Shown: in pieces, positions 31,677 to 57,981 of the stretch
Layout: each line of letters opens with the position of its first letter
Position numbering within the stretch: the stretch's first letter is position 1
DNA from: a virus
Length of the DNA: 64,000 nt
Reading direction: 5' to 3' (one strand)
Virus record (IMG/VR): IMGVR_UViG_3300033064_001806
Location: 32,001 to 96,000 of that record
Made by a program: the position numbers and the translations under genes
The notes under the pieces: generated by a model
The model's input: the letters and a program-made list of their open reading frames with translations, nothing else
Told to the model about the DNA's origin: nothing
The model's database searches: none

Positions 31677-31724
31677 TATATTTGTATAAATAATAGATTT
31701 TCAACCCGTGACAATTTGTCACGG
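31677..31724 (+). promoter_or_regulatory. TATATTTG promoter element followed by a 19-bp palindrome (candidate operator)
   Basis: TATATTTG at 31677-84; ccgtgacaa-t-ttgtcacgg at 31706-24. Confidence 0.6.
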
Positions 31725-31758: not shown

Positions 31759-32016
31759 ATGATTACCATTAAACATTACACAGCCTCTTGGTGTATGCCA
31801 TGTAAACAACTTAAACCCATTATGAGTGAAATCTTACTTAAACGTCCAAATGTCAATTATAAACTTATTGATGTGGACAATAATCCAGATGAAGCATCGA
31901 TGCATGGTGTTCGTGGAGTTCCTACTGTAATATTTATGAAAGATGGGGTTGAAGTAAATAGAATTATTGGTTTGGTTTCTAAAACAAATTACGAAATGGC
32001 AATTGATAATTTATAA
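31759..32016 (+). CDS. trxA: Thioredoxin
   Basis: ASWCMPC active site, VRGVPT; ATG 31759 after aagga preferred to GTG 31708. Confidence 0.9.
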   Translation: MITIKHYTASWCMPCKQLKPIMSEILLKRPNVNYKLIDVDNNPDEASMHGVRGVPTVIFMKDGVEVNRIIGLVSKTNYEMAIDNL

Positions 32017-32025
32017 TGGTGATAT

Positions 32026-32724
32026 ATGACAGTTATAGAAGCGGTTTCTCCCGGTGACGCTTGGGTAAAAGTTTCTAAGCATTTGTTAGAAAAAGGGGAA
32101 AAAGTCGGTGAATTAATTGAAGAATTAAATGTAATGATGGAAATTACTCAATTTGAAAGTGATGATTGGTTTGATTCACACTTCAGAGAAATAATGGGTG
32201 ATGATAGAATTGATTTTGCTTCTTCGGTTACTTTCGTAGAACCTAAACATAAAAAACCAATTAACGATTTCTTTCAAGTAGAAGAAGGATTAGAATATCA
32301 GTTCATTAAAGACCATTGGCATCAGTCCTATTGGGGAAGAATGATTAGTTGGCAAGGTACGTTTAATCAAGTTGAAAACGTTATTAAGATTTTGAAACAA
32401 GGTAAAGCAGTTAAACGTTGTGAGTTAATTATATTTGACCCATCACGTGATTCACGCAATCCGTATTCTCAACCTTGTATGTTAATGATTGACTTGAAGC
32501 CACGGAATGGTAAGTTGTATTTAACTTCTGTTTTACGTTCCAATAGAGTTTCTAAAAGTGGTTACGCTGATTATTCTGCTTTAGTTAGTATGGGTAAGTT
32601 TTTAGCAAAAGAAAGTGATTTGGAATTAGGAAAGGTTAGTGTATTAGCATGTTCCTGCCACATCGGTAAGATGAACAATGAACTTAAAAAAACAAAAGAA
32701 TTATTAAACATACTCAATAAATAA
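32026..32724 (+). CDS. Thymidylate synthase-fold enzyme, atypical (candidate dCMP/dUMP C5-modifying enzyme)
   Basis: Y.GR, NQ, PC catalytic Cys, RNGKL, RSN, S.H. Carries RSNR instead of RSxD and Asp (YAD) at the TS Asn specificity position. Confidence 0.75.
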   Translation: MTVIEAVSPGDAWVKVSKHLLEKGEKVGELIEELNVMMEITQFESDDWFDSHFREIMGDDRIDFASSVTFVEPKHKKPINDFFQVEEGLEYQFIKDHWHQSYWGRMISWQGTFNQVENVIKILKQGKAVKRCELIIFDPSRDSRNPYSQPCMLMIDLKPRNGKLYLTSVLRSNRVSKSGYADYSALVSMGKFLAKESDLELGKVSVLACSCHIGKMNNELKKTKELLNILNK

Positions 32725-32725
32725 T

Positions 32726-34231
32726 ATGTGCGGTATAATAGCAACCGTCGGTTATACTAAAACTGACGTTGATAATATGTTGGAAACCATCGCTCACCGT
32801 GGTAAAGATAACCGTGGTATAAAAGAATTTTCTTGGGGCGATAGAAAAGTTATACTTGGACATAATCGTCTTGCCATTAACGATACTTCTGCCGCAGGCA
32901 ATCAACCGATGGAATGGGAAGGTATTCACTTAGTAGTTAATGGCGAAATATGGAATTATCCTGAACTAAGAAAAGAATACGAAGAAAGGGGATATAAGTT
33001 TAAATCAAATTCAGATTCAGAACTTATACTGTTTGTGTACAAAGAACAAGAATTGAAAAGACTTAACGGTATGTTTTCTTTTGTTATTTGGGATAACGGA
33101 AAGCTAATTCTTTCACGTGATTGGGTTGGTAAGTTACCACTCTATATTTTTAACAATAACACTTACATTATTGCAAGTGAAATAAAATCTATTGTTAAAC
33201 AATTACCGAACGCTGACATTAAGTTTGTACCGAAAAATTCTTTGATTGAAATTGATCTGAGTACCGATAAAATAATAGTTCATAAAGATTACTATTTTAA
33301 CTTTTCAAACGAAACAACTTCACCCGAAACACATGAAGAATGCAGTACAACAACGTACAATCTACTGGAGAACGCGGTAAGTAAAAGATTGTTATCTGAT
33401 GTACCTATTGCAACTTCGTTGTCTGGTGGGATTGATTCCGCTGTTATAACGTATTTGTTATCTACTAAAATACCAAACTTAAAAGCCTATACAATTGCTT
33501 TTGATGAAGATTCACCTGACTTGAAATATGCAAGAATAGTTGCAAAACATTTAGGTGTTCAATTGGTTGAAGTTTTAGTTCCAAGAAACGTGGAACTCTT
33601 GAAGCAAAGATTTTTAGAATCAATACGAGTTATTGAATATCCATCTACAGTTCAAATGCAAGTTGGTATTCTACAATCGTTTATAGCAGAACAAATGGCA
33701 AAGGATGGAATAAAAGTTGCGTTTAGTGGTGAAGGTTCTGATGAAGCGTATGGTTCTTATGGAATGATACGGATGTTTAGTAAGAAGCCAGACTGGTCGG
33801 ATATTAGAAAGAAATTATTTGAAAAGCAATACTATGGTAATTTATTACGCGGTAATACTGTTTTCATGTATTACGGAACAATAGAATTACGTTGCCCGTT
33901 TTTCGATATTGATTTTTTAGATTACACTACTAACTTAACGAACGAATTTTTATCTGATAAATCTCAATGGAAACTTCCACTCGCAGATGCATTTAGACCG
34001 TACTTGCCTAAAGAAGTTATTGAACAAGAGAAACGTGCTTTTCAAAAAGGTACAAACTTCAAAGGATATATTGAAGATATAATTCTAAATGATAAAGAAA
34101 TAAACTTTCGTAATAGAAAAAAGATGCTTCATGTAATTGGTGATAACTTTGAAAAGATTCATGGATTTTCACATAAGAAAATGAAGGGCGAACTTATTGG
34201 TAATAATAGTGGAATATTCAAATGGATTTAA
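32726..34231 (+). CDS. Asparagine synthetase B-like glutamine amidotransferase
   Basis: MCGI N-terminal nucleophile, HRG.D, LGHNRLAI, NGEIWNY, SDSE, LSGGIDS, SGEGSDE, ELRCPF. Confidence 0.9.
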   Translation: MCGIIATVGYTKTDVDNMLETIAHRGKDNRGIKEFSWGDRKVILGHNRLAINDTSAAGNQPMEWEGIHLVVNGEIWNYPELRKEYEERGYKFKSNSDSELILFVYKEQELKRLNGMFSFVIWDNGKLILSRDWVGKLPLYIFNNNTYIIASEIKSIVKQLPNADIKFVPKNSLIEIDLSTDKIIVHKDYYFNFSNETTSPETHEECSTTTYNLLENAVSKRLLSDVPIATSLSGGIDSAVITYLLSTKIPNLKAYTIAFDEDSPDLKYARIVAKHLGVQLVEVLVPRNVELLKQRFLESIRVIEYPSTVQMQVGILQSFIAEQMAKDGIKVAFSGEGSDEAYGSYGMIRMFSKKPDWSDIRKKLFEKQYYGNLLRGNTVFMYYGTIELRCPFFDIDFLDYTTNLTNEFLSDKSQWKLPLADAFRPYLPKEVIEQEKRAFQKGTNFKGYIEDIILNDKEINFRNRKKMLHVIGDNFEKIHGFSHKKMKGELIGNNSGIFKWI

Positions 34232-35061
34232 TACAAACACCGATTGAGGAATACGAACTCAAAGGAAAGAAAGTTTGGGTTAAACGTGATGATTTAATAG
34301 GTGATGGGATAAATTATCCAAGGTGGGCAAAGATAGAAGGAATTAAACAAATTCTAAGAAGCCCTGCTGTTGATAAAAACAAACCATTAACTCACCTTTC
34401 AGTATACGGTAGTTGGACAGGCTGGGTTTTATCTAAACTTTGTAAAGAAGAAGGTATAGAATTTATTTCTTCTTATCCAGATACAAAGAAATTCCCACCG
34501 AGTTTAATTGAAAGAGTAATGGCAAATGGTGGAAAATTAAATCCACTTAAACCAAACATAATGGCAATACTAAACAATCGTGTAAAGAAACAGGCAATAG
34601 AAAACGGGTGGCAAATGTTACCATATGCGTTCAATCATCCAATGTACATTGCACACATGGGTAGTAGAATGAAAGAAGTATTGGCGGATAATGATTTTGA
34701 CCACTTGGTTGTTTCAATGGGAAGTGGTGTAACGTGTTCTGGACTTATAAATTCATTCTTACATTATACAGATTGGCGAGATGTTGTTAGTAACAGAAGG
34801 CAAGTTCATGGTATTACAATGTCATCGATAAAATCAACAAGAAAAATATTAGAACAAAATGGAGCAGGTGGTAATAATAATATTCACATTTATAAATCAC
34901 CATTTGCTTTTGACGATATGATGTTGGATTATTCAGTACCGTTTGATTGTAATGAGTTTTGGGATAAAAAAATGTGGTTCTGGTTAGAAGAAAACATTGG
35001 GAAATTAGACGGAAAAGTATTATTTTGGAATATTGGCGGTTCATATTTACAATCGATTTAA
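34222..35061 (+). CDS. PLP-dependent fold-type II enzyme (D-cysteine desulfhydrase/ACC deaminase-like)
   Basis: TP......VWVKRDDL...AK (PLP Lys), V.SMGSGVT phosphate loop, LFWNIGG. Confidence 0.75.
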   Translation: MDLIQTPIEEYELKGKKVWVKRDDLIGDGINYPRWAKIEGIKQILRSPAVDKNKPLTHLSVYGSWTGWVLSKLCKEEGIEFISSYPDTKKFPPSLIERVMANGGKLNPLKPNIMAILNNRVKKQAIENGWQMLPYAFNHPMYIAHMGSRMKEVLADNDFDHLVVSMGSGVTCSGLINSFLHYTDWRDVVSNRRQVHGITMSSIKSTRKILEQNGAGGNNNIHIYKSPFAFDDMMLDYSVPFDCNEFWDKKMWFWLEENIGKLDGKVLFWNIGGSYLQSI

Positions 35062-35077
35062 TATAAATAAAGGAGTT

Positions 35078-35590
35078 ATGAAAATGGCACAGACGTGGCA
35101 AAGAAGATGGGATGAGAGTTTGGCTGAGGAATCATTTAAGAACAGATTAAATTTACCTATTACGTATGTAAAGTTAAGTCCAGACGCAGTTAAACCAGAA
35201 TACTCACAAGACGGTGATGCTGGTATGGATTTAACAGCGACTTCATTTAGAGTTACAGATACTTTTATGGAATTTGGAACTGGTATTGCGGTACAGATTC
35301 CAGCGAATCATGTTGGACTTTTATTTCCAAGAAGTTCAATTACAAAAGCAGCAGCAGGAGTTTCATTGAAAAATTCTGTTGGTGTTATAGATTCAAATTA
35401 TCGTGGTGAAATCCTTGTGAGATTTGAATTGCCTTATTCAGGAGCGGTGGGTGGAACTATTCCAGTTGTTGGCGATAGAGTTGCACAATTGGTTATTATT
35501 CCGTATCCAAGAGTAAAATTCGTAGAAGTAGAGAAACTATCCGATACAAACCGTGGCCAAGGTGGGTTTGGTTCAACGGATAAACAATAA
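35078..35590 (+). CDS. dut: Trimeric dUTPase
   Basis: AGMDL, PRSS, GVIDSNYRGEI, RVAQL, RGQGGFGST; start moved to the ATG after AGGAG. Confidence 0.95.
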   Translation: MKMAQTWQRRWDESLAEESFKNRLNLPITYVKLSPDAVKPEYSQDGDAGMDLTATSFRVTDTFMEFGTGIAVQIPANHVGLLFPRSSITKAAAGVSLKNSVGVIDSNYRGEILVRFELPYSGAVGGTIPVVGDRVAQLVIIPYPRVKFVEVEKLSDTNRGQGGFGSTDKQ

Positions 35591-35637: not shown

Positions 35638-36267
35638 ATGTCAAAACTAAGTAACATATTAAAAGAAAGTGGTTTATCGAGATTGGTTTACCACATGGAA
35701 ATGCACGATTGCGGTACAATTACAGCCTTCCGCTCTAAAGAAGGGTGTGGTTTACCTGAAGATTTACCGTATGCTCTACAAGATAACAAAAAAAGAAATG
35801 CACAATTAAAAGCAAAACTTGAAATGATGGGGTATGGAACAACAGCAGTTAAAGGTGCTTACATTGAAAACTACGGAACACCTGAAGCAATTGAAGTACG
35901 TGAAGATGTTTTCTTTGTTGTGGATTTACAAGATAAAGGAAAACTTGAAGCAGATTTAAGAAGATTGGGTGAAGAGTATATGCAAGATTCTATTTTGCTT
36001 ATACCAAGGGGCGGTGATGGTTCTATTCTAATCGGTACAAACCAGTGTTCAGATTATCCAGGATATGGAAGAACAATGCAATTCAATGATAGACAAATGG
36101 GCAAAGGTGGGCAATTCATGACAAAAGTAAAAGGCAGACCTTTTATATTTGAATCTGACTTGCTTGAACAAATTGGAAACCATAACTATTATAGTGTTGC
36201 AAACAACATGGGTAAGTGGGCAATGAAAACTATTGCAAATAAAAATTGGAAAGATATACAAATTTAA
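35638..36267 (+). CDS. Putative SAM lyase (T3 SAMase-like) with an L-K-E head-protein-type leader
   Basis: TAFRS...N..RN...G.Y.E...(R)E...QDSIL parallels the T3 SAMase pattern SAFRS...N..RH...GCYRE...EE...QDCVL (recalled, not searched). Confidence 0.6.
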   Translation: MSKLSNILKESGLSRLVYHMEMHDCGTITAFRSKEGCGLPEDLPYALQDNKKRNAQLKAKLEMMGYGTTAVKGAYIENYGTPEAIEVREDVFFVVDLQDKGKLEADLRRLGEEYMQDSILLIPRGGDGSILIGTNQCSDYPGYGRTMQFNDRQMGKGGQFMTKVKGRPFIFESDLLEQIGNHNYYSVANNMGKWAMKTIANKNWKDIQI

Positions 36268-39558: not shown

Positions 39559-40278
39559 ATGGAAAAATCAAAGTTATTAAACTTCATTAGTAAATATCAC
39601 TTGGGTAAATTAGTTCAATCTGTTGCTTGGAATGCAAACGGTGGATTAGCAACTCGTTTTATTTCTGATGACAAATGCGTAGTAGGAGAAGTTAAGTTAA
39701 AAAGTTTCAGCGGTCAAGTAGCAAAGTTTGGTGTGTATGATACAAACTTACTTACAAGTCTTCTTGGTGTTCTTGGTAACACTATTGAATTTAAAATCAA
39801 TGGTGCAGACGATAAAGCATTCGCTTTAACATTAAGTGATAAATCCACAACTGTTAATTATATGTTAGCTGATTTGGCAGTTATTCCACCGGCACCGGAG
39901 TTGAAAGAACTTCCACCATTTGAATTAGAAATGTCAATTACAAAAGATTTTATTGATAAATTTATCAAAGCTAAATCTGCTTTATCTGATATTGAGAAGT
40001 TTACTATTCTTAAAAACGGTAAGACTAATAAATGGCAAATTGTAATTGGTTATGCTAACATAAACTCCAATAGAATTTCAATTGATATTGATTGTATTTG
40101 TGAACAAGATTTTGAACCAATTTCTTTTTCAGCAAAGTATTTCAAAGAAATTCTATCAGCAAATAAAGATTTGAACGGTGGTTCAATGAAAGTTTCCTCA
40201 CAAGGTTTAGCAAAAGTTGAATTTGATATTGACGATTTTGAATCAAGATATTTCTTAGTAAAATTGGAAAACAATTAA
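39559..40278 (+). CDS. Sliding clamp (gp45-like)
   Basis: 239 aa; FGVYD..LL, Y.LAD...IP, FSAKYFKEIL, VSSQGL, YFLV; between PolB and the clamp loader. Confidence 0.8.
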   Translation: MEKSKLLNFISKYHLGKLVQSVAWNANGGLATRFISDDKCVVGEVKLKSFSGQVAKFGVYDTNLLTSLLGVLGNTIEFKINGADDKAFALTLSDKSTTVNYMLADLAVIPPAPELKELPPFELEMSITKDFIDKFIKAKSALSDIEKFTILKNGKTNKWQIVIGYANINSNRISIDIDCICEQDFEPISFSAKYFKEILSANKDLNGGSMKVSSQGLAKVEFDIDDFESRYFLVKLENN

Positions 40279-41912
40279 TGAAAAAGTATTTCTATGAAAA
40301 AAGTGATATTCTGTCCTGGCCATCAAACATAACGTATGGTGAACTGGTTACATTTGACGATAACAGGTTTTATGAATGGGCAGAAGATTTACGAATGAGG
40401 ATTCTAACTGATTGGGATAACAATGGGAAACCGCCAGTCGTTGGTAGAACTGAGGAAGAGATTAATCAATCATTCTCGAAACTCCGTCAGTTCAACGCTT
40501 CATCTATTTTTCATAGTGTGGAAGACGGCAATGACTCTGATATGATTGGAGTCATTGCTAATTTCACAAAAATTGGTTCTGCTGCAAATCAATTCTTTCC
40601 AACAATGCTAAAAACTAAAATTGCATCTGGCATGGGAAGTGATTCTGGTAAATCGATTTACGATTATTTTACAGACTCTATGAAAGAAACATTTCATCAT
40701 ATTATGAAGAGAAGTGTTTACAACGATTCTATGTATTTGTACAGTAAGTCTTTATCTTCAAATCAAGTAAAGAATCCTTACTTCAAAGAAGGTGAAACTC
40801 TTCGTGATTTCTTCATGGCGTATAAAAATGGTGATGGAAGATTCGATGGACAAGGTGTTCGTATTTCTAAAATATCATGCACTCTACAAACTCAAAGTAA
40901 AAAATACAAAAAGTATTTAACTATAAAGGTAGATGAGATTAGACAGTTCTTAGCGGAAGGTTTGATTGATGACTTCATGTTATTTACTTTGGGTAGTCCA
41001 GCGGATTTAACTGATACATTTAATATACAAAAAGAAGGTTCGGAACCGAGGGCAAATGTTTATATTGTTCGTGTTTACGAAAAGAATATAAAACTATTTC
41101 CAAGTGCAATACAAGTATTTCGTATGTCATTTTGTCAACCGGCTGTAAACTTTCCACCTATGACCGCAAAGTTTATTTATGAACACTTTACAAAACATAT
41201 ACCTGCAAGTGAAACAGTAACGGTATATGATCCAAGTTCTGGTTGGGGTGGAAGGATACTCGGTGCTATGTCTGTTGGCCGCCCAATGCATTATGTTGGA
41301 ACAGACCCAAATACAGATAACTTTATTGATGAATTAGGAATAAGTCGTTATGAATACCTTGCAGACTTTTTTCTAAAATCAATAGGCGAGCGAGGCACAA
41401 ATATATCTTCAAACTTCTTTGTTACAAATGAAAATCATACATACGAACTTTTTCAAGATGGTTCAGAAACAATTCAATTCAATCCTAAATTTCAAAAGTA
41501 TAAAGGTAAGTTAGATTTTGTTTTTACTTCACCACCATACTTTAATAGAGAAATGTATTCCGATGATGCAACTCAATCGTATAAAGCACATAGTGAGTAT
41601 GCGGATTGGCGTGATAACTTTTTACGCCCAACATTAGAAACTGCGGTTGCTTATTTGAAATCAGACCGTTACCTTTGTTGGAATATAGCTGATATTAGAA
41701 TTTCAACTAACAAAATAGTTCACCTTGAAAAAGATTCAATTGATATATTAGAATCATTGGGAATGGAGTATGTAGGTAAATTTGGAATGGCAATGGGTAG
41801 AATGATTGGTAACTCTGACCAAGAAAAATTGGCTGAAAGAACTTCTAATAAAGTTTTTCATAAAGGTCAATGGTGGAAACAAGAACCTATTTTTATTTTC
41901 CGGAAACCATAA
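40278..41912 (+). CDS. DNA amino-methyltransferase-like protein (N4C/N6A)
   Basis: NFPP, YDPSSGWGGR (SAM motif I), GTDPN, FTSPPYF (motif IV). Confidence 0.8.
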   Translation: MKKYFYEKSDILSWPSNITYGELVTFDDNRFYEWAEDLRMRILTDWDNNGKPPVVGRTEEEINQSFSKLRQFNASSIFHSVEDGNDSDMIGVIANFTKIGSAANQFFPTMLKTKIASGMGSDSGKSIYDYFTDSMKETFHHIMKRSVYNDSMYLYSKSLSSNQVKNPYFKEGETLRDFFMAYKNGDGRFDGQGVRISKISCTLQTQSKKYKKYLTIKVDEIRQFLAEGLIDDFMLFTLGSPADLTDTFNIQKEGSEPRANVYIVRVYEKNIKLFPSAIQVFRMSFCQPAVNFPPMTAKFIYEHFTKHIPASETVTVYDPSSGWGGRILGAMSVGRPMHYVGTDPNTDNFIDELGISRYEYLADFFLKSIGERGTNISSNFFVTNENHTYELFQDGSETIQFNPKFQKYKGKLDFVFTSPPYFNREMYSDDATQSYKAHSEYADWRDNFLRPTLETAVAYLKSDRYLCWNIADIRISTNKIVHLEKDSIDILESLGMEYVGKFGMAMGRMIGNSDQEKLAERTSNKVFHKGQWWKQEPIFIFRKP

Positions 41913-41915
41913 TAT

Positions 41916-42995
41916 ATGAGACCTAACGGCGATAGTTTAAGTAAATTTTTTGATGTTGATCAGCTAGAAGTTCGTTTGTGGAAAGAAACAGGTGAATACT
42001 TTGCAGGTAAGAGAGAATTGGATGATACAATAGATTGTATCTTTCAGTATTACCGCAAACATGGTTATCCGTATATGAAAATCACCGAACAAGAAAAACA
42101 TGAACACATGAGAAAACTTCAACAATTTAATTATGATTCTATTTTCAAAGACGGTGATATAATTCAAACTATGAACGGACTTCGTTTGGCATGGTCTTAC
42201 TTTCCACATGGAATGGAAATCAAGTGTGGTAATTCTAAAATGTCTCCTATGGATAATTTTTTAAATGACCAAACATTCAAAATGACTATTCGTAAATGTT
42301 TGAAGTGGTTGTGGAAACATTTGGGTGGTTCTTTTCAAGAGAATCGTCTTCGTCAATCACTTAAAATATATTCCGGTGTTCAAGGTGTTTCTAATTTCAG
42401 ACCAACTGCTGCAGGTGCTATTTATAAAAGATTTGGTGGTGATGGTGTGATGTGGGATATGTCTTGTGGTTGGGGTGGTAGATTAGTCGGTGCACTTGCT
42501 TCACCGTATATCAAAACTTATATCGGAACAGAACCATCTACCAAAACATTTGAAGGTCTATGTAAACTTCGTGATGACTTTGCGTATCTTGGGAAAGATA
42601 TTCAATTGAATATGATGGGTTCAGAAGATTATCTACCAGAAAAAGAAAGTTTAGATTTATGTTTCACTTCACCTCCGTATTTTGATACAGAAAAGTATGC
42701 AGATGAAGAAACTCAATCGTATAATAAGTTTTCAACTCGTGATACTTGGGGTTCTGGTTTCTTACAAGAAACATTTAAGAATTGTTTTCATGGATTAAAA
42801 CCGCATGGTTATATGTTGATAAACATTTCAAATACACCAAAGTATAAAGACTTGGAAGAAATGACAATTCATTATGCAAAAGAAGTGGGTTTCATATATG
42901 AAGGTAAAATTAATCTAATTCTATCATCAGTTATGGGTGCTGGGTATAAAAGAGAACCTGCATTTATTTTTATAAAACCCTTGGCAGTCTCATAA
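41916..42995 (+). CDS. DNA amino-methyltransferase-like protein (N4C/N6A)
   Basis: NFRP, WDMSCGWGGR, GTEP, FTSPPYFDTE. Confidence 0.82.
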   Translation: MRPNGDSLSKFFDVDQLEVRLWKETGEYFAGKRELDDTIDCIFQYYRKHGYPYMKITEQEKHEHMRKLQQFNYDSIFKDGDIIQTMNGLRLAWSYFPHGMEIKCGNSKMSPMDNFLNDQTFKMTIRKCLKWLWKHLGGSFQENRLRQSLKIYSGVQGVSNFRPTAAGAIYKRFGGDGVMWDMSCGWGGRLVGALASPYIKTYIGTEPSTKTFEGLCKLRDDFAYLGKDIQLNMMGSEDYLPEKESLDLCFTSPPYFDTEKYADEETQSYNKFSTRDTWGSGFLQETFKNCFHGLKPHGYMLINISNTPKYKDLEEMTIHYAKEVGFIYEGKINLILSSVMGAGYKREPAFIFIKPLAVS

Positions 42996-44720: not shown

Positions 44721-45100
44721 GGAATAAAATGTCAATTAAAGAAATAGACTTAGGTAGAAAACAAAATAGTGTTGTTTCTGAAATGGAAGAAAAGTTTCCT
44801 ACTATGACTAAAGAATTTAAACGTATTCAACAAGAACAGTACGAACTATTCTGTGCAAAACAAAAAAACTATGGTCCAGATAATATATCAATGGGTACAA
44901 CATTAGAAAGAGAGGAAGACAGAAAACTTTCTTTACAAGGTTTATTCTTTCGTATTAACGATAAAATAAACAGATACAAACAAATGATTATGTTTGGTTC
45001 ACAAGATGCAGTTGGTGAATCCTTATATGACACATTCAAAGATATTTCTGTTTATGGAATTATCGCACAACTTGTTCAATCTGGTAAATGGGGGAAATAA
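44717..45100 (+). CDS. Nucleotide modification-associated domain 1 (Nmad1/DUF1599-like all-alpha protein)
   Basis: K..NYG..N...R.NDK..R...ES..DT..D...Y.II. Confidence 0.75.
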   Translation: MRNKMSIKEIDLGRKQNSVVSEMEEKFPTMTKEFKRIQQEQYELFCAKQKNYGPDNISMGTTLEREEDRKLSLQGLFFRINDKINRYKQMIMFGSQDAVGESLYDTFKDISVYGIIAQLVQSGKWGK

Positions 45101-46257
45101 TGAGTACATATATATGGACTTCGGAATATGTAAGTGAAGGTCATCCTGATAAAATAGCTGACCAAATTTCAGATGCAATTCTTGATTGGTATTTACAAAG
45201 AGATCCAGACGCAAAGGTTGCGTGTGAGGTTATGGTAAAGGATAGTGATGTTTATGTTTCTGGTGAAATAAAATCAACGGTTGATAAAGATAAAAGAACT
45301 TTAGAATTATCACTAACTAGATTAATTAAAGGACTTATAAAAGACATTGGCTATACAATAGAAGAATCACCATTCTTCAATTCAGAGTATTGCCGTATTC
45401 ACTTTAATATATCAACTCAATCATCAGAGATTAATCAAGCGGTTGATAAAGGTGATGTTGTTACAGCAGGAGACCAAGGTATTATGTTTGGTTACGCTAC
45501 TCGTGAAACTCCAACATATATGCCGATAGCAATTTACTTGGCTAAAAAACTAATTGACGTTGCAACAGATATTAGAAAAAAAGGTAGTAAATTAGGTCAT
45601 GTACAGAAACTTCGTCCCGATATGAAGAGTCAAGTGTCTGTTACGTATAAAGATAATAAAGCAGTAGGTATTCATTCTGTTGTATTTTCAACTTGTCATT
45701 CTGAAATGATTTCACTTGAACAACTTAGAAAGTATTTCCATTCTGATATTTTACCAACGGTATTAGAAAGTATTCCAGAAGAACTTGCGGAACTATTTAC
45801 AGATAAAACTGTTTACCATATAAATCCAGCAGGTGAATGGAATGTTGGTGGTCCAGTTTCTGATTGTGGATTAACAGGTAGAAAGATTGTAGTTGATCAA
45901 TACGGTGCTGATTGTGAAATTGGCGGTGGCGCTTTCTCTGGCAAAGACCCAAGTAAAGTTGATAGAAGTGCAGCGTATATGGCTCGTCATATCGCTATAA
46001 CAACACTTCATGAAAATGAAGAAGCAAATAAAATTAAAGTTCAATTGGCATATGCAATCGGTGAAGAGTTTCCTGTTTCATATCGTATATTTGATCCAAC
46101 AACTTGCAAAGAATATGGACTTGGTAAATTTACTCACGCTGATTTAACTCCAAGTAGAATCATTGAAAGATTAAAATTAAAAACTCCTATTTATTTACAA
46201 ACTGCCAAGTATGGTCATTTTGGAAATAAAGATTTAGAATGGGAGAAAATTGGATGA
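45100..46257 (+). CDS. metK: S-adenosylmethionine synthetase
   Basis: SE.VSEGHPDK, AGDQG, D.KSQ, GLTGRKI.VD.YG, GGGAFSGKDPSKVDRS, YGHFG. Confidence 0.97.
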   Translation: MSTYIWTSEYVSEGHPDKIADQISDAILDWYLQRDPDAKVACEVMVKDSDVYVSGEIKSTVDKDKRTLELSLTRLIKGLIKDIGYTIEESPFFNSEYCRIHFNISTQSSEINQAVDKGDVVTAGDQGIMFGYATRETPTYMPIAIYLAKKLIDVATDIRKKGSKLGHVQKLRPDMKSQVSVTYKDNKAVGIHSVVFSTCHSEMISLEQLRKYFHSDILPTVLESIPEELAELFTDKTVYHINPAGEWNVGGPVSDCGLTGRKIVVDQYGADCEIGGGAFSGKDPSKVDRSAAYMARHIAITTLHENEEANKIKVQLAYAIGEEFPVSYRIFDPTTCKEYGLGKFTHADLTPSRIIERLKLKTPIYLQTAKYGHFGNKDLEWEKIG

Positions 46258-47918: not shown

Positions 47919-49349
47919 ATGGCAAAGAAAAAGATACTATTATTATCAGATGATTTAAGATTAACATCTGGAATTGCAACTGTGTCTCGTGATTTAGTTC
48001 TCGGCACAGTAAGAGATTTTGATTGGGTGCAAGTTGGTGCAGCAATTAATCATCCAGATAAAGGTAAAATATTTGATTTATCACAAGATGCTAAAGAACG
48101 AAGCGGTGATGATACGGCAAATATAAAAATATATTGTAACGATGGATATGGTGATCCATTTCTTATTCGTAGAATAATGGATGCGGAAAAACCAGACGCT
48201 ATATTACATTTTACAGACCCAAGATTTTGGGGATGGTTATATAACATGGAACATGAGATTCGTAAAAAAATGCCGTTGATGTATTTGAATATATGGGACG
48301 GTGCAGGATTGGTTGGTGATACAGCAACAGACCCTATGTGGAATAAAGAAGCGTATGCTAGTTGTGATTTATTACTGGCAATTTCAAAACAAACATACGG
48401 TATTAATTACAGAGTGTTGAAAAAATTCGGTGAAGAAGTTCCAAAGCATAGAATAACTTATATTCCGCATGGAATAGATACTGATATATTTTATCCTATA
48501 AATGAAGCATCAACCGATAATCAATGGAATGAATTACAAGAAGAACGTAATAAACTTCGTAATGGCAATGATGATAAGTTCGTTGTTATGTGGAACAACC
48601 GAAACATTCACCGTAAGCATCCAGGTGATGTTGTTCTTGCTTATAAACATTTCTGTCAACTTGTAGATAAAAACGGTGGGAATGCTGCAGAAGATTGTGT
48701 ATTACTAATGCACACCCAACCCATGGATCCAAATGGAACAGACTTAGTTGCTTTAGTTGGTGAACTTTGTGGTGAGTATACTGTTTTATTTGACGATAAA
48801 ATAGTTCCATCTACAAAATTAAATGTTCTATATAATGCAGTTGATGTTGTTCTTAACATGGCTTCAAATGAAGGTTTTGGTTTAGGAACAGCAGAAGCAC
48901 TTGCAGCAGGTACTCCGATTGTAGTAAACGTTACCGGTGGGTTACAAGACCAATGTGGTTTTATAAATCCAACAACTGGTAAATACTTTACAGAAGATGA
49001 TTATTTGAAAATACATACACTCCATAGAAAAGATGAATGGGGACATTTAGAACATGGTGAGTGGGTCAAACCAGTTTGGCCATCAAACATTTCATTACAA
49101 GGTTCAGTACCAACTCCTTATATTTTTGATGATAGAGCAGATTTTAGAGATATTGGAAAAGCGTTGTATGATTGGTACATAACTTCAAAGGAAGAAAGAA
49201 CATTTGCAGGATTAAAGGGAAGAGAATTTATTATGAATGTAGAAGTTGGCATGTCAAGAAATAATATGTGTGAGCGAATTTCAACAAGTATCAACGATAC
49301 ATTTGAAAATTTCGTACCACGAAAAAGTTTTGAATTACATTTAGTGTGA
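47919..49349 (+). CDS. GT4-family glycosyltransferase
   Basis: SG...V, IPHG.D, RN..RK, EGFGL...EA.A.GTP. Confidence 0.9.
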   Translation: MAKKKILLLSDDLRLTSGIATVSRDLVLGTVRDFDWVQVGAAINHPDKGKIFDLSQDAKERSGDDTANIKIYCNDGYGDPFLIRRIMDAEKPDAILHFTDPRFWGWLYNMEHEIRKKMPLMYLNIWDGAGLVGDTATDPMWNKEAYASCDLLLAISKQTYGINYRVLKKFGEEVPKHRITYIPHGIDTDIFYPINEASTDNQWNELQEERNKLRNGNDDKFVVMWNNRNIHRKHPGDVVLAYKHFCQLVDKNGGNAAEDCVLLMHTQPMDPNGTDLVALVGELCGEYTVLFDDKIVPSTKLNVLYNAVDVVLNMASNEGFGLGTAEALAAGTPIVVNVTGGLQDQCGFINPTTGKYFTEDDYLKIHTLHRKDEWGHLEHGEWVKPVWPSNISLQGSVPTPYIFDDRADFRDIGKALYDWYITSKEERTFAGLKGREFIMNVEVGMSRNNMCERISTSINDTFENFVPRKSFELHLV

Positions 49350-49356
49350 GGAAATA

Positions 49357-50658
49357 ATGAGTTATAGACCAAAATTAGCTTTTTGTGGACCAGTTACAAC
49401 TATGAGTGGTTATGGTTCTCATGCGAGAGATTTACTTTTATCACTTATAGAAATGGATAAGTTTGATATACAAGTAATATCAATAAATTGGGGCGATACA
49501 CCCATGGATGTATTGGATTCAGATAATGTAGATATGAAAAAAATTAAAGATTTAATAATTCCAGGTTTACAATCACAGCCAGACATTTGGATGCAATGCA
49601 CTATTCCAAATGAATTCCAAGCAGTTGGTAAATATAATGTTGGAATTACAGCAGGTGTGGAGACTGATGCTTGTTCTCCCGAGTGGGTTGATGGTTGTAA
49701 TCGTATGAACTTGATTATTGTTCCATCCAAACACGCTAAGTGGGTATTTGATAATACTCAATACGATAAAATGGATAAACAAACAAATCAGAAAATAGGA
49801 AGTCTTAAAATAACTACACCAGTTGAAGTCTTACATGAAGGTGTTAGAACTGATATATACAACAAGGATAATACTTTAGAAAAAAATATAACAGAAGTAT
49901 TAGATTTGATTCCAAACAATTTCGTATATTTGTTTGTTGGACATTGGCTTAAAGGAGACTTCGGTCAAGATAGAAAAGATATTTCTGGACTGATTTACAC
50001 TTTCTGCGAAACATTTGGTGATACAGTAAATCCACCAGCACTTCTTTTGAAATGCACAAGTGGAACATTCTCTGTCTCGGATAGAAGTAGAGTAATGGAT
50101 AAAATAAATCTTATTAAGCGAATGAGTAAAAAGAAAAATCTACCAGAGATTTATTTACTTCACGGTGAATTAACTGATAATGAAATGAATTCTCTTTACA
50201 ATCATAAGAAAGTAAAGACGATGGTTTCATTTACGAAGGGTGAAGGGTATGGTAGACCAATTGCAGAATTTATGGCGTCTGGTAAACCTATTATCGTTTC
50301 GGGTTGGAGTGGACACATGGATTTTATAAATGAGAAATCTCATATTCCATTAAAAGGCACTCTATTAGAAGTTCATCCAAGTGCGGTTTGGGATACAATT
50401 ATAAATAAAGGAACACGCTGGTTTACAGTAGATTATCAATCTGCAGCAGAAACTATGAATAAAGTTCATAAAAATTATAATAAATACTTACAAAATTCTA
50501 AAATAGGTATTCGTGAACTAAAAAGTATTTGGTCATATAGTTCTATGTGTAGAAAATTTGAAACTATGTTAGATGAAAAACTACCAAAGTTTGCAGACAG
50601 AATTGCTCTTAGTTTACCTAAACTTAAAAAAATTAGTAGTCCAGGGGAAACTAAATGA
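49357..50658 (+). CDS. GT4-like glycosyltransferase
   Basis: SGYG..AR, VPS.H, RK.I, GEGYGRP..E. Confidence 0.85.
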   Translation: MSYRPKLAFCGPVTTMSGYGSHARDLLLSLIEMDKFDIQVISINWGDTPMDVLDSDNVDMKKIKDLIIPGLQSQPDIWMQCTIPNEFQAVGKYNVGITAGVETDACSPEWVDGCNRMNLIIVPSKHAKWVFDNTQYDKMDKQTNQKIGSLKITTPVEVLHEGVRTDIYNKDNTLEKNITEVLDLIPNNFVYLFVGHWLKGDFGQDRKDISGLIYTFCETFGDTVNPPALLLKCTSGTFSVSDRSRVMDKINLIKRMSKKKNLPEIYLLHGELTDNEMNSLYNHKKVKTMVSFTKGEGYGRPIAEFMASGKPIIVSGWSGHMDFINEKSHIPLKGTLLEVHPSAVWDTIINKGTRWFTVDYQSAAETMNKVHKNYNKYLQNSKIGIRELKSIWSYSSMCRKFETMLDEKLPKFADRIALSLPKLKKISSPGETK

Positions 50659-51278
50659 TTTCGTACACTATTACTGCTTGTAATGAACACACTCAGTTAA
50701 ATACTTTATTAAATTATCTTAGTTCAAGAATATCTAAAAATGATGAAATCGTGTTACAGATGGATAGTTTATCTGTAACTAACGAAGTAATAGAAGTTGT
50801 TAACCAATGTAAAGGAAAGCTACAAAACTTAATCGTTGTTGAATTTCCATTAAACAATGACTTCTCTAGCTTCAAGAATAATTTGAAAAAGCATTGTACT
50901 AAAAAATGGATTTTCAATATTGATGCAGATGAAATACCAGCTGAAAATTTAATGGTAGATATACATGAAATTCTAAACGAGAATCAAGAAGTTGATATGT
51001 TTTTAATTCCAAGATGGAATACTGTTGATGGTATAACTGAAGATCATATAAAGCAGTGGAACTGGAACTATGATAAAGAAGGTAGAGTTAATTGGCCAGA
51101 TTTACAAACAAGAATTTATAAGAATAACGAATCTATTGTTTGGAAAAACAAAGTACATGAAAGGTTGAGTGGTTTTACTACGTATGCCGTTCTACCAGAA
51201 GAAATAGAATATTGTCTGTTCCATCCCAAAACGATAGAACGTCAAGAAAAACAAAATGAATTTTATAGTCAGATATAG
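50655..51278 (+). CDS. GT2-family glycosyltransferase
   Basis: NE, IDADE, WPD.Q.R, W...VHE. Confidence 0.85.
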   Translation: MISYTITACNEHTQLNTLLNYLSSRISKNDEIVLQMDSLSVTNEVIEVVNQCKGKLQNLIVVEFPLNNDFSSFKNNLKKHCTKKWIFNIDADEIPAENLMVDIHEILNENQEVDMFLIPRWNTVDGITEDHIKQWNWNYDKEGRVNWPDLQTRIYKNNESIVWKNKVHERLSGFTTYAVLPEEIEYCLFHPKTIERQEKQNEFYSQI

Positions 51279-51286
51279 GAATTGTT

Positions 51287-52471
51287 ATGAAAAAAATACC
51301 CTTATTCAAAGTATTCATGTCTGAAACTGCACCGAAGGCAGTTACAGAAGTTCTTACAAGTGGATTCATCGGGCAAGGTCCAAAGGTAGAAGAGTTAGAA
51401 CGTAATCTAACTTCTTACTTTGGAACTACATCGTCTCAAGTTTTAACCCTTAACTCAGCAACTTCAGCAGAACATTTAATTTATCACCTCCTCAAGAAGC
51501 CATCAAGACTTACAACAACATATGATGTGGGTGAATCTTGGTACGATTGGAGAGGCTTACAAGAAGGGGATGAAGTTCTAACAACACCACTAACTTGTAC
51601 AGCTACAAATTGGCCAATATTAGCAAACGGTTTGAAAATTAAATGGGTTGATGTTGATCCAAGCACAATGAATATATCTTTAGAAGATTTGAAATTAAAG
51701 TTATCGGAAAAAACAAAGATTGTTGTTGTTGTTCATTGGGGTGGTTATCCTGTTGATTTGGTTGAACTTGAAAAAATTAGACGAGATTTTCATACTAAGT
51801 ACGGTTTTCCATTTATGATAGTAGATGATTCCGCACACGCATTTGGTTCTAAGTTGGACAACAAATTAATTGGTACATTCGATACCATTTCAACTTTCTC
51901 AATGCAAGCGATTAAACACATAACTTCAATTGATGGTGGATTCTGGTTGTGTCCTTATAGCGAGTTAAACAAACGTGGTAAGCTACAAAGGTGGTATGGT
52001 ATTGATAGAGAAGGATCAAGAGGAGATTTTAGATGTGAAAGTGATATAGAAGAGTGGGGATTTAAGTTTCACATGAATGATGTTTCTGCTGCGGTTGGTA
52101 TAGAAAATCTAAAACACGCAAATGATATAATCAGAAAACATAGAGATAACGCTGAGTTTTATAACAAAGAATTACAAAATATAAGTGGTGTAACACTATT
52201 AGAAAACTCTCCAAGAAAAAAATCTGCTTATTGGTTATATACAATGCGAGTAGAAAGGAGAGACGAGTTTATGCGTTATATGAACAATTGTGGTATTGTT
52301 ACAAGTAGAGTACATGAAAGAAACGATAAACATACTTGCGTTAAAGAATTCGTTACTGAATTACCGAATATTGAAATGGTAACTAAAGATATGATATGCA
52401 TTCCTGTTGGGTGGTGGGTTACAGAAGAGCAACGTGAATATATTGTTGATTGTATTAAGAGAGGTTGGTAA
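51287..52471 (+). CDS. DegT/DnrJ/EryC1/StrS sugar aminotransferase
   Basis: NSATSA, VHWGG, DSAHA, FS.QAIKHIT..DGG. Confidence 0.92.
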   Translation: MKKIPLFKVFMSETAPKAVTEVLTSGFIGQGPKVEELERNLTSYFGTTSSQVLTLNSATSAEHLIYHLLKKPSRLTTTYDVGESWYDWRGLQEGDEVLTTPLTCTATNWPILANGLKIKWVDVDPSTMNISLEDLKLKLSEKTKIVVVVHWGGYPVDLVELEKIRRDFHTKYGFPFMIVDDSAHAFGSKLDNKLIGTFDTISTFSMQAIKHITSIDGGFWLCPYSELNKRGKLQRWYGIDREGSRGDFRCESDIEEWGFKFHMNDVSAAVGIENLKHANDIIRKHRDNAEFYNKELQNISGVTLLENSPRKKSAYWLYTMRVERRDEFMRYMNNCGIVTSRVHERNDKHTCVKEFVTELPNIEMVTKDMICIPVGWWVTEEQREYIVDCIKRGW

Positions 52472-52698
52472 TGCAACATAATACTCCGGTAGATTTAAAA
52501 TCATCTGTTAGTGATGTTGTTGGAAATTATGTAACTCAAATAATTCATTTTATTGGTGGAGATAAAAGAACATTTCACAATATAGAATCTGCTAGTATTC
52601 GCCAAGGGCAATTCACAAAATTCAAACAAAAAGATGGCACTTGGATAATGATTAATGATAGAAATGTTTTATGTATAGAAGTTTTTAATCAGGAATAA
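52471..52698 (+). CDS. Small hypothetical protein
   Basis: ORF overlapping the stop of the aminotransferase. Confidence 0.5.
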   Translation: MQHNTPVDLKSSVSDVVGNYVTQIIHFIGGDKRTFHNIESASIRQGQFTKFKQKDGTWIMINDRNVLCIEVFNQE

Positions 52699-52700
52699 CA

Positions 52701-53267
52701 ATGATTGGATGGAATGAAGAAATAAAAAAAGAATTAGGGTACTGTGGTAATAATGTATTTATAGGACATAATGTTGTATTCACAAATCCAAAAGAAGTTT
52801 ACCTAAGTGATAATGTTAGAATAGATCCATTTACCTTAATAACAACTAAATTAAAAGTTGGAAGTTATGTTCAAATTTGTTCTCATGCAGTTCTTGGTGG
52901 TGGTGCTTCTCACACAATTACGTTAGGTGATTGGACTTTCATAGGGTATGGTTCTAAATTATTCTGTGCTTCTGAAGATTATAGTGGGGAATTTGGCCCA
53001 GTCAATGAGTTTTGGGGAAGTAATAAAATATTCAGAGGTGATATTACGTTGAGTAATCACTCAGGTATTGCTTCCGATACAATGTTATTTCCAGGTGTTC
53101 ATCTTCCAGAAGGATGTACAATCGGTGCTAAAAGTTTTGTTTATCCTAAAGTTGAACTAACCGAATGGAGTGTTTGGATTGGAAATCCTTTGAAGTTTCA
53201 TAAAACAAGAAACAAAGAGAACGTACTTAAATTTGCACAAGATGATGAATTTTTAAAGAAACATTAG
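52701..53267 (+). CDS. Left-handed beta-helix acyltransferase
   Basis: Hexapeptide repeats; C-terminal GNP. Confidence 0.85.
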   Translation: MIGWNEEIKKELGYCGNNVFIGHNVVFTNPKEVYLSDNVRIDPFTLITTKLKVGSYVQICSHAVLGGGASHTITLGDWTFIGYGSKLFCASEDYSGEFGPVNEFWGSNKIFRGDITLSNHSGIASDTMLFPGVHLPEGCTIGAKSFVYPKVELTEWSVWIGNPLKFHKTRNKENVLKFAQDDEFLKKH

Positions 53268-53277
53268 AATAAAATAT

Positions 53278-54024
53278 ATGAAGTGTTGTAAAGTAATATG
53301 CTTTTGGTTTGGTTGGAGAAGAAAAAGTAGTAATAATGTTGAGAATATTACTCAGCTAGTTCCTGCAATAATAGATACGGAACTTAATATAGAAAATGGA
53401 ATTGATACTGATGTTTTGTTTGTTGTGAATAAATCTAATACAGAACTAGATAACTCACTTGATCAGTATGAAGGAATGAAAACAAAGAATGGTACTATTA
53501 AAGTTATTAAACGAGATAACATTGGTTTGTCATTTGGTGCATATCTTACAACATTTTCAAAATTGAAAGATGAATATGATTATTGGTTTTTCTCTGAAGA
53601 TGATGTAATAATTTATCACGAAAATTATATGAAATCATTCGTAGATTTTTGGGAAAAAAATAAAGAGCAATTGGGATTTATCGCTTTAGCACCTATAAGT
53701 AATTACGGAAAATTACATTGTGGTGGTGGATGTGGATTGGTTTCTACCGATTGGATGAAACAAACATATACTGATTCTGATATAGACCGTATTATAGATT
53801 CGTATTCCAAGTTTGAAGAACAGTATGATATTGCAGATTCTACATTGGGTAGTGAAAATGTGGAGATACGTTTTTCAAATGCATTTGTTCACGATGGAAA
53901 AACTATAATGAATCATTCCGAATATTCACCACTCGCAGCTAATTACAGACACCATAATAGTCAAAGAGCGTTTGAAAGCGCAGAGAATTTAAGTAAAACT
54001 TTTATATACACAGTTGGGGATTGA
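53278..54024 (+). CDS. Putative GT-A-fold glycosyltransferase
   Basis: R.N.G.SFGAY, YWFFSEDD. Confidence 0.6.
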   Translation: MKCCKVICFWFGWRRKSSNNVENITQLVPAIIDTELNIENGIDTDVLFVVNKSNTELDNSLDQYEGMKTKNGTIKVIKRDNIGLSFGAYLTTFSKLKDEYDYWFFSEDDVIIYHENYMKSFVDFWEKNKEQLGFIALAPISNYGKLHCGGGCGLVSTDWMKQTYTDSDIDRIIDSYSKFEEQYDIADSTLGSENVEIRFSNAFVHDGKTIMNHSEYSPLAANYRHHNSQRAFESAENLSKTFIYTVGD

Positions 54025-54025
54025 T

Positions 54026-54898
54026 ATGAAAAATTATTTCACAGAAAAAACAGCAATGGATATTCCTTGGATTGAATCTCCTTTTTTTGAAAAAATATTA
54101 AACAATTCAGATTACACTGAAGAAGAAAGAGAAACTTTAATAAAGTATAATAAAGATGGGTATATTGTAATTGATTTAGAATTAGATGATAATTTTATTA
54201 GTAATTTAATTAGTGGCGTTCAAGATGAATTAAATAAATTACCAACTCAAGATTCAAGATACCACTACTCAGATTCACCTAGAGTTTTTGAAGCATGGAG
54301 AATTAACCCGTATGTTTTAGATTTAGCAAAGCATCCTAAGATATTGAAAACACTTGAGTTTCTTTATAATAAAAAACCAGTTCCGTTTCAAACTATAAAT
54401 TTTTTGAAGGGTAGTAATCAACCATTACATCAAGACTCTATTCATTTTTATACTCAACCGGAAAGATGGATGGTTGGAACTTGGACTGCGTTAGAAGATA
54501 TGAGTGAACTAAATGGTCCATTGAATATAGTACCAGGTAGTCACAGACATCCACATTACAACTTTCAAAACTTAAATTTACCAGTGGTTGAGTTTGGAAA
54601 TCAATTTGAAAATTACGCTGAGTATGAAAACTTTCTTATTCATTTAGTAGAAACAATGAGTGAGAACAAGAAACAATGGATAGGTAAAAAAGGTCAAACA
54701 TTAATTTGGGCTGCTAATTTATTACACGGCGGTGCTGAAATTATTGATAAAAATTTAACACGTCATTCACAGGCTACTCATTTTTACTTTGAAGGTTGTA
54801 ACCATTACTACTCTCCTTTATTCTCAGACGCTACTAACGGAATATATTCAGATAAAGACTTAACAAACAAAGATATATTAAATCATATAATTGGGTGA
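54026..54898 (+). CDS. Phytanoyl-CoA dioxygenase-family 2OG-Fe(II) oxygenase
   Basis: HQD, W.ALED, NGPL..PGSH, LLHGG, R.S. Confidence 0.9.
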   Translation: MKNYFTEKTAMDIPWIESPFFEKILNNSDYTEEERETLIKYNKDGYIVIDLELDDNFISNLISGVQDELNKLPTQDSRYHYSDSPRVFEAWRINPYVLDLAKHPKILKTLEFLYNKKPVPFQTINFLKGSNQPLHQDSIHFYTQPERWMVGTWTALEDMSELNGPLNIVPGSHRHPHYNFQNLNLPVVEFGNQFENYAEYENFLIHLVETMSENKKQWIGKKGQTLIWAANLLHGGAEIIDKNLTRHSQATHFYFEGCNHYYSPLFSDATNGIYSDKDLTNKDILNHIIG

Positions 54899-54901
54899 TG
54901 T

Positions 54902-56520: not shown

Positions 56521-56522
56521 TT

Positions 56523-57434: not shown

Positions 57435-57981
57435 TGAACCAAATATTGAATCGAGTTATTCTATAAATAATTTAGGGCGTACCATTTACCAAACAGTTTT
57501 GGATTACAAACCAGAACGAGTTATTGAATTTGGTGCACTCTATGGTTATTCTACTATTTGTATTGCGTCTGCTCTGAGGGAACTTGGTAGGGGTAAACTT
57601 GTATGTTATGACATTTGGGACAAGTATCAATACAAACACGCATCTATAAATGAAACTTATGCTAATGTTATTAAGTATGATTTAACTGACTATGTTGAAT
57701 TACAGGAAATGGATTTTTATGAATGGGTATCGAACCCAACTGATTTTGATTTAATGCATTTGGATATTTCTAACGATGGTTCTACAATTGAATTAGTTCA
57801 TGATTCACTTATTAAGAACAGAAAGTCCGGTGTAGTTTTATTTGAAGGTGGTACGGTTGAACGAGATAATGTTGAATGGATGATTAAGTACAATAAAAAA
57901 CCATTCAGTTCAATACAGAAAAAAGTTCAGTATGAAATTGTTAACCCTATGTTTCCTTCACTTTCCAAAATAGTTTTATGA
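57424..57981 (+). CDS. Class I SAM-dependent methyltransferase
   Basis: VIEFGALYGYST, YD.W, DLMHLD. Confidence 0.85.
   Translation: MIFNEPNIESSYSINNLGRTIYQTVLDYKPERVIEFGALYGYSTICIASALRELGRGKLVCYDIWDKYQYKHASINETYANVIKYDLTDYVELQEMDFYEWVSNPTDFDLMHLDISNDGSTIELVHDSLIKNRKSGVVLFEGGTVERDNVEWMIKYNKKPFSSIQKKVQYEIVNPMFPSLSKIVL

Follow-up and report, generated by a model that had tools for sequence, protein, structure and literature searches.

In the thymidine pathway of phages M6 and ViI, a thymidylate synthase (TS)-family enzyme supplies a C5-functionalised pyrimidine with uracil as the base, alongside a 5-hydroxymethyldeoxyuridine (5-hmdU) DNA kinase, an aGPT-Pplase transferase and a fold-type-II pyridoxal phosphate (PLP) enzyme that tailors an amino-acid-like side chain (PMC8989533, PMC5889632). 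In the CmoA/CmoX/CmoY pathway of Synechococcus phage S-B43, which contains a C5-methylase-type enzyme (CmoX) and no PLP enzyme, a cytosine C5 carboxylate is amidated on DNA: the asparagine-synthetase homologue CmoY joins glycine to the 5-carboxymethylcytosine of cyanophage DNA, and a glutaminase domain is present in some CmoY homologues (PMC12783734). The flavin-dependent 5-hydroxy-deoxycytidine monophosphate (5-hydroxy-dCMP) synthases HY126 AfhB, RB69 gp48 and DLP3 gp80 have a short TS fold, keep the catalytic Cys, carry Asp at the site of ThyA Asn177 and have Asp169 replaced by Asn (D169N); their partners are arabinosyl or glycosyl transferases (PMC13326640). MilA, a cytidine monophosphate (CMP) 5-hydroxymethylase, and phage T4 gp42 likewise combine the TS fold and catalytic Cys with a cytosine-specifying Asp, and they keep the folate-binding Asp (RAND in MilA). 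Here we describe a gene cassette in a 64,000-nt stretch of viral DNA (hereafter the window; positions 32,001-96,000 of IMG/VR record IMGVR_UViG_3300033064_001806) that encodes a TS-fold protein, an AsnB-like protein, a PALP-fold PLP enzyme and two SPPY-motif amino-methyltransferase-like proteins. From domain identities, active-site residues, gene linkage, fusions and insertion structure, we consider it probable that this cassette is a mobile phage module for cytosine DNA hypermodification, previously undescribed. The nearest characterised relatives of its enzymes modify cytosine nucleotides or DNA base side chains (AfhB and MilA; M6 gp52; more distantly CmoY). Full-text literature searches turned up three related pathways but no paper on this gene combination or on Microcystis phage Mel-JY01, the closest cultured relative of the window phage (PolB 62% identical).

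The cassette resembles each of these systems in part. Like M6 and ViI, it pairs a TS-family enzyme with a fold-type-II PLP enzyme, and a radical S-adenosylmethionine (SAM) enzyme (rSAM) occurs in some cassettes too; the TS-fold protein, however, is of the cytosine rather than the uracil type (Asp at the Asn177 site), the kinase and transferase are absent, the rSAM enzyme is class-B-like and unlike M6 gp53, and AsnB/PP-loop and SPPY genes are added. With the Cmo pathway it shares an asparagine-synthetase homologue and an occurrence in aquatic phages, but we assign the C5 chemistry to a TS-fold enzyme rather than to CmoX, a PLP enzyme is present, and similarity to CmoY is weak and confined to bare PP-loop variants. 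The AfhB-type synthases are ~17% identical to the TS-fold protein and differ in having Asn where the new family has Arg or Ala, and in their transferase partners, which are replaced here by AsnB, PLP and SPPY proteins. MilA and T4 gp42 are ~90 residues longer and lack an insert that is characteristic of the new family.

Comparison with Mel-JY01 defined the unit of insertion. Mel-JY01 has the gene order Trx, dUTPase, one open reading frame (ORF), PolB, clamp, clamp loader, Nmad1-like, MetK, PD-(D/E)XK and glycosyltransferases. In the window, the genes for the TS-fold protein (32026-32724), the AsnB-like protein (32726-34231) and the PLP enzyme (34222-35061) lie exactly between those for thioredoxin (Trx; 31759-32016, PF00085 at 3e-15) and a trimeric dUTPase (35084-35590, PF00692 at 3e-16), and the two SPPY genes (4a, 40278-41912; 4b, 41916-42995) form a second insert between the sliding clamp and clamp loader, 5 kb downstream of the first. 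Mel-JY01 has no homologue of the TS-like, AsnB, PALP or either SPPY gene, and its gene directly after Trx is 45% identical to the window dUTPase. The earlier note on this DNA had assigned all five genes from Trx to dUTPase to one pathway. They are indeed tightly packed, all on the plus strand, with spacings in order of 9 nt, 1 nt, a 10-nt overlap and 22 nt, but Trx and dUTPase are adjacent in Mel-JY01 without the three central genes; the unit is a three-gene insert between two backbone genes, not a five-gene operon. Because Trx, dUTPase, Nmad1, MetK and the sugar genes are present in the cassette-less Mel-JY01, we assign them to the backbone and not to the pathway. Linkage of Trx with the TS-like gene is confined to 3 of 20 lineage groups, and Trx adjoins ribonucleotide reductase in other relatives (such as L025); dUTPase adjoins the cassette in its closest relatives only, as does a gene for a SAM-lyase-family protein (35638-36267, plus strand; PF23780 at 1.2e-10, over its cut-off).

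We measured how consistently the cassette genes travel together by scanning IMG/VR with the TS-like protein and with its family alignment, which yielded 78 distinct viral contigs whose TS-like proteins are 36-99% identical to that of the window. Scans of viral contigs with single proteins (P0161, P0157 and P0155) were empty, and the family-alignment query retrieved homologues. An AsnB gene or a ~300-amino-acid PP-loop gene lay within 7 kb in 76 of the 78 contigs, the two exceptions being one contig whose end lies 35 bp beyond the TS-like gene and a TS-rSAM pair. PALP genes (70 contigs) and/or radical-SAM genes (6 contigs) were found in 74, and all four remaining contigs are truncated; SPPY genes were present in 64. 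When neighbouring ORFs were clustered across 20 TS lineage groups, AsnB/PP-loop, PALP/rSAM and SPPY genes alone were widely co-distributed with the TS-like gene, and no kinase, glycosylase-like transferase or glycosyltransferase was. The functional tie between TS-like, AsnB and PLP genes proposed in the earlier note thus holds as near-absolute linkage. Two proteins join cassette components directly, a TS-rSAM fusion (P0161) and an rSAM-SPPY fusion (L068). An apparent TS-AsnB fusion in L044 was rejected as Rosetta-stone evidence, being an in-frame deletion that removed the last 14 TS-like and first 15 AsnB residues, including Cys2.

The TS-fold protein (232 amino acids; PF00303 at 26.7 bits, cut-off 24.3) is publicly annotated as thymidylate synthase, and its best NCBIfam match is a short methanogen-type TS, far under cut-off. 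We read its motifs by aligning it with MilA, with AfhB and with other members of the TS-like family. The catalytic Cys151 (in a Pro-Cys context), R171 and S172 are invariant among 22 aligned members, as are K130, D182, H212, a family-specific segment at 49-73 and the family's own insert, FD..FR..G..RID.A..TF.P. Asp182 occupies the position of ThyA Asn177, the residue that selects dUMP over dCMP in ThyA (PMC13326640), and aligns with the Asp of MilA and AfhB. At the position of the folate-contact Asp169 (RSxD) the window protein has Arg, and the 22 family members have R or A, never N. The RR of ThyA reads K130-R131, and the Leu143 equivalent is Ser (G, R, K or S across the family), so that there is no water-excluding Leu. 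These alignments bear out the motif reading of the earlier note: PC and RS are kept, Arg stands for the RSxD Asp, KR for RR, and Asp for the dUMP-specific Asn. An AlphaFold model (pLDDT 91) gave AfhB (9iqc/9iqu) and MilA as its top Foldseek matches, and the family profile searched against PDB matched AfhB at 3.7e-9 and MilA at 2.7e-8, with canonical TS at 5e-4 or worse. Profile and model together indicate that the protein is most likely a cytosine-type TS homologue, whose closest solved relatives, AfhB and MilA, are both C5 modifiers of cytosine nucleotides.

Three more familiar roles were considered for this protein and rejected. Three complete jumbo relatives encode a canonical ThyA (E 1e-90 to 1e-95) besides the TS-like gene, which rules out the TS-like protein as the phage's dTMP synthase; a complete 177-kb near-twin of the window phage has the TS-like gene and no other ThyA. 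A folate-type (d)CMP hydroxymethylase of the T4 gp42/MilA kind fits the retained specificity Asp but not the loss of Asp169, and a D169N flavin-dependent hydroxylase, despite being the best fold and profile match, would have the diagnostic Asn; because the position is R or A, the protein is neither. Since the folate-contact Asp is lost, we propose that the enzyme uses a non-folate co-substrate. There is precedent for such a cofactor switch, as TS homologues with an altered Asp169 use flavin in place of folate (PMC13326640). Remote short TS-like relatives (P0240, P0196 and P0192) are fused to Ham1-type or NUDIX nucleoside triphosphate (NTP) pyrophosphatases, or to MtrA and the pterin-binding DUF4346, pointing to a wide and little-studied diversity of the TS fold.

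The AsnB-like protein (501 amino acids; GATase_7 and Asn_synthase domains) matches E. coli AsnB at 1.7e-41. Cys2 of the glutaminase and the PP-loop SGGIDS are invariant in its family and equivalents of the catalytic Glu and Lys are retained, and from these residues we predict a glutamine amidotransferase and PP-loop adenylating enzyme that forms amides. In a profile alignment to 1ct9, the Thr322-Thr323-x-Arg325 segment of E. coli AsnB (T-T-I-R), which we take to be required for beta-aspartyl-AMP formation, stands opposite V309-Q310-M311-Q312. Other cassettes have AsnB swapped for a bare PP-loop domain of ~300 amino acids without a glutaminase, and this variant weakly matches S-B43 CmoY (2e-4).

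These findings bear on the plainest alternative, that the cassette is ordinary auxiliary metabolism. Its genes would then boost the metabolism of the infected host and encode a divergent thymidylate synthase, a genuine asparagine synthetase and a threonine/serine dehydratase. Public annotation favours this view, naming the PLP protein a threonine dehydratase and the TS-fold protein a thymidylate synthase, as do the score of the AsnB-like protein for asparagine synthase and the complete 177-kb relative without another ThyA. Yet the TS-like protein has Asp at the dUMP-specifying site and has lost the folate Asp, canonical ThyA stands alongside it in the three jumbo relatives, and the AsnB aspartate-activating motif is not retained. 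A PP-loop protein without glutaminase can moreover take the place of AsnB, and a radical-SAM enzyme that of PALP, and near-absolute three-gene linkage is unexpected for unrelated metabolic genes. We regard this alternative as highly improbable.

The PLP enzyme (279 amino acids; phrog_7093 at 4e-26, PF00291 under its cut-off) is homologous over its full length to phage M6 gp52 (BLASTP 2e-28, 29% identity, residues 6-272), with K37 opposite M6 K36. M6 gp52 has been shown experimentally to decarboxylate C-alpha-glycinyl-thymine, an amino-acid adduct in DNA (PMC8989533). In the PALP family alignment K37 is invariant and a GSGVT loop is present, and Lys37 is the predicted Schiff-base residue. The structural model (pLDDT 86) matched D-cysteine desulfhydrase and 1-aminocyclopropane-1-carboxylate (ACC) deaminase; the Asn of their Ser-Asn loop is replaced by an invariant Trp in the PALP family. 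In the ESM Atlas, the window protein falls in virus-only PALP clusters. The radical-SAM enzymes of other cassettes gave weak NCBIfam class-B matches, far under cut-offs (ladderane lipid rSAM, BchE, ArsL and AprD4), matched only AprD4 in PDB (0.005) and had no detectable similarity to M6 gp53.

The two SPPY genes, overlooked in the earlier note, are a co-varying part of the cassette. Protein 4a (544 amino acids) has a partial PF01555 match and 4b (359 amino acids) a PF01555 match; all 11 aligned homologues contain the SPPY motif, a form of the motif IV (S/D/N)PP(Y/F) of N4-cytosine and N6-adenine amino-methyltransferases, which lies at residue 418 in 4a; in the family alignment, D-x-S-x-GWG (the SAM-binding motif I) precedes FTSPPYF. 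Protein 4b shares 40% identity (9e-68) with a cassette-adjacent protein of L052 and 41% with a Vibrio phage gene product that is annotated N4-cytosine methylase; in distant cassettes, orthologues of 4a immediately precede the TS-like gene. A search of the SPPY protein against PDB sequences returned no match. Cassettes carry one to six SPPY paralogues (six in L102 and L106), a variation that suggests rapid gene turnover, perhaps with different sequence specificities. A near-identical 177-kb relative has a third paralogue just upstream of PolB (L002:12867-14021) that is lacking in the window.

Genes that start the known pathways were sought and not found. The earlier note had recognised no 5-hydroxymethyluracil (hmU) kinase or amino-acid:DNA transferase in the window, and that absence extends further: no 5-hmdU DNA kinase (PF18723) and no aGPT-Pplase2 was detected in the window, in the 110-kb contig from which it comes, or in five complete or near-complete relatives, and tblastn found no homologue of M6 gp51 or the M6 kinase. 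The 110-kb contig contains no C5-methylase (PF00145); CmoA was not searched for.

From these components we infer a substrate, an order of steps, a level of action (nucleotide or DNA) and a product. The TS-fold enzyme would bind a cytosine mononucleotide, most likely dCMP, its Cys adding to C6, and install a C5 substituent from a non-folate co-substrate. The resulting side chain would bear a carboxylate, as substrate for AsnB or the PP-loop enzyme, and a free alpha-amine for the gp52-like PLP enzyme. The AsnB-type enzyme would adenylate the carboxylate and amidate it with glutamine-derived ammonia; for the bare PP-loop variants the nucleophile would be another amine or free ammonia. The gp52-like enzyme would build or decarboxylate the amino-acid-like part, a task that may fall to the class-B-like radical-SAM enzyme in some cassettes. 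Finally, the SPPY enzymes, which resemble N4-cytosine-type, SAM-dependent amino-methyltransferases, would methylate N4 or a side-chain amine on DNA, possibly in a sequence-specific manner because there are up to six paralogues per cassette. The modification would shield phage DNA from host nucleases.

A variant of this scheme places every step on polymer DNA (or RNA/tRNA) after synthesis, with the TS-like enzyme attacking C6 in the manner of C5-methylases or aGPT-Pplase2 and no modified deoxynucleoside triphosphate being made. It draws on the characterised homologues of the partner enzymes (CmoY, M6 gp52 and N4-cytosine methylases), all of which act on DNA (PMC12783734; PMC8989533), on the missing ThyA-type phosphate-binding Arg in the N-terminal half of the TS-like protein, and on the lack of a recognised dedicated dCTPase or dNMP kinase, for which no systematic search was made. 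All characterised TS-fold enzymes, however, use mononucleotides; the residues that contact the 5'-phosphate in ThyA, here R171-S172 and K130, are invariant, and the NUDIX/Ham1 pyrophosphatase fusions of the remote short relatives likewise point to mononucleotides. Action on the polymer throughout therefore seems to us rather unlikely.

The product could instead be a free modified pyrimidine nucleotide or nucleoside serving as an antimetabolite, signal or cofactor-like molecule, as made in the mildiomycin (MilA) or bacimethrin pathways via a CMP hydroxymethylase, with the SPPY proteins as unrelated methylases. In favour of such a product, the TS-like protein has MilA as one of its two nearest characterised relatives, small-molecule biosynthesis often employs AsnB-family and fold-type-II PLP enzymes, and SPPY homologues occur without the cassette. 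Against it, neither an N-glycosidase (MilB/BcmB-like) nor any other natural-product gene shows conserved association with the cassette, the only characterised homologues of the PLP enzyme act on DNA (PMC8989533), the rSAM-SPPY and TS-rSAM fusions join a DNA-methylase-like domain to the pathway, and the cassette is located among replication genes. We judge a free small molecule to be improbable.

Several observations weigh against cytosine DNA hypermodification as the function of the cassette. The AsnB-like protein exceeds the NCBI equivalog cut-off for asparagine synthase (TIGR01536; 292 against 267 bits). SPPY homologues also occur alone, as predicted ordinary N4-cytosine methylases (Vibrio phage 2.058.O, which has no cassette), so that a general 'DNA modification island' could account for part of their co-location. 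In its N-terminal half, the TS-like protein has no recognisable equivalents of ThyA Arg21 or Glu58, which makes nucleotide binding only putative, and no dCTPase or dNMP kinase dedicated to modified dCMP was identified in our non-systematic survey. A decarboxylase like M6 gp52 would compete with AsnB for one carboxylate unless the adduct has two or the PLP reaction differs; the way out would be two carboxylates on the adduct, or a PLP enzyme that builds the side chain by the beta-replacement typical of its fold.

For the radical-SAM variants, the chemistry has an analogue in diphthamide biosynthesis, in which a radical-SAM enzyme (Dph2), a SAM-dependent amine methyltransferase (Dph5) and a PP-loop ATPase that amidates a carboxylate (Dph6) act in one pathway. 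The analogy is one of chemistry, not homology: diphthamide is built on a histidine of a protein, by enzymes of other families and without a TS fold. A more specific form of hypermodification would be a diphthamide-like amino-acid-amide side chain on cytosine C5, residing in the phage genome. The TS-fold enzyme would activate C5 of dCMP, the PLP enzyme would provide a serine-derived aminoacrylate or the radical-SAM enzyme a SAM-derived aminocarboxypropyl group, and a new C-C bond would form; AsnB or the PP-loop enzyme would then turn the carboxylate into a carboxamide, and the SPPY enzymes would methylate the amine or N4. We offer this structure as a speculative and, on present evidence, unlikely product; if true, DNA would gain a new class of base, and the TS fold a new use with a co-substrate that is neither folate nor flavin.

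Relatives of the cassette are widespread. The TS-like protein forms hundreds of clusters in freshwater and marine metagenomes, the cassette occurs in phages of ~170 kb to 375 kb, and DNA near-identical to the window is present in freshwater and lake metagenomes from many studies; a DNA-level search against a phage collection gave no match. In one lake metatranscriptome, contigs span parts of all five genes from Trx to dUTPase, including the TS/AsnB and AsnB/PALP junctions; DNA in the library is possible, so transcription is not proven by these contigs. A second sequencing run (X7) held short, dissimilar pieces only. The set SPPY, TS-like, PP-loop and rSAM also occurs in three Ignavibacteria/Candidatus Kapaibacterium genome bins (L118:6590-10975, L119 and L120:6650-10913), one copy lying on a 3.28-Mb contig beside an HTH_17 excisionase-like gene. 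These bacterial copies may belong to a prophage or island, or the bacteria may put the same modification to a cellular use; PADLOC detected no defence genes beside them. Some jumbo relatives carry one to four ORFs of 70-140 amino acids between the TS-like and AsnB genes (L016:8701-9845; L045:8701-9123), which have no Pfam or PHROG match and are possibly selfish elements.

The source contig is a 110-kb IMG/VR virus with a CheckV completeness of 62%, a GC content of ~33% and a single coding strand throughout. Between a tail-protein gene and Trx, upstream of the latter, positions 31706-31724 form a perfect palindrome of 19 nt, CCGTGACAA-T-TTGTCACGG, possibly an operator or the stem of a terminator. 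The window contains it a single time, and its 15-nt core gives a single match in 28 of 100 shuffles. The palindrome of the earlier note is thus confirmed, but the single promoter placed with it is not: sigma-70-like promoter matches are at chance level (24 found against 27.1 expected in shuffled sequence), and a terminator scan was likewise not above chance. Two further genes had been named as possible accessories. The Nmad1 gene at 44717 is a weak match (E 3.7e-4, under cut-off) and belongs to the backbone shared with Mel-JY01, and the NUDIX gene at 60818 has its domain confirmed but shows no linkage to the cassette. Besides the SAM-lyase-family protein noted above, the phage encodes a full SAM synthetase, MetK (45088-46257), a backbone gene also present in Mel-JY01; it is odd for a single genome to encode both a degrader and a maker of SAM, and the pairing may be relevant to the SPPY or rSAM steps, which depend on SAM. 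A glycan block at 47919-60030 encodes two family 4 (GT4) and two family 2 (GT2) glycosyltransferases, a DegT-type aminotransferase, a hexapeptide acyltransferase, a PhyH-family dioxygenase, a short-chain dehydrogenase and a methyltransferase, and we do not tie it to the cassette because its first GT4 is common to Mel-JY01. Two very large ORFs stand upstream in the structural region (1029-5435, 1468 amino acids; 5478-13115, 2545 amino acids).

This analysis newly establishes how the inserts sit relative to Mel-JY01 and how often the genes are linked, and it adds the SPPY component, the two fusions, the changed AsnB motif and the bacterial copies. Hypermodification of phage DNA decides escape from restriction, CRISPR and other nuclease defences, and is a source of useful enzymes and new nucleic-acid chemistry. 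The cassette uses none of the known entry routes, namely hmU kinase plus transferase, C5-methylase plus carboxy-SAM (Cx-SAM), TET, or glycosyltransferase on 5-hydroxymethylcytosine (hmC) or 5-hydroxycytosine (hoC). Working it out would probably bring the thymidylate-synthase superfamily a third cofactor type, together with a new cytosine derivative and a new nucleic-acid role for asparagine-synthetase-like enzymes. It would also account for the DNA of abundant uncultured aquatic phages that possibly resists sequencing or cutting.

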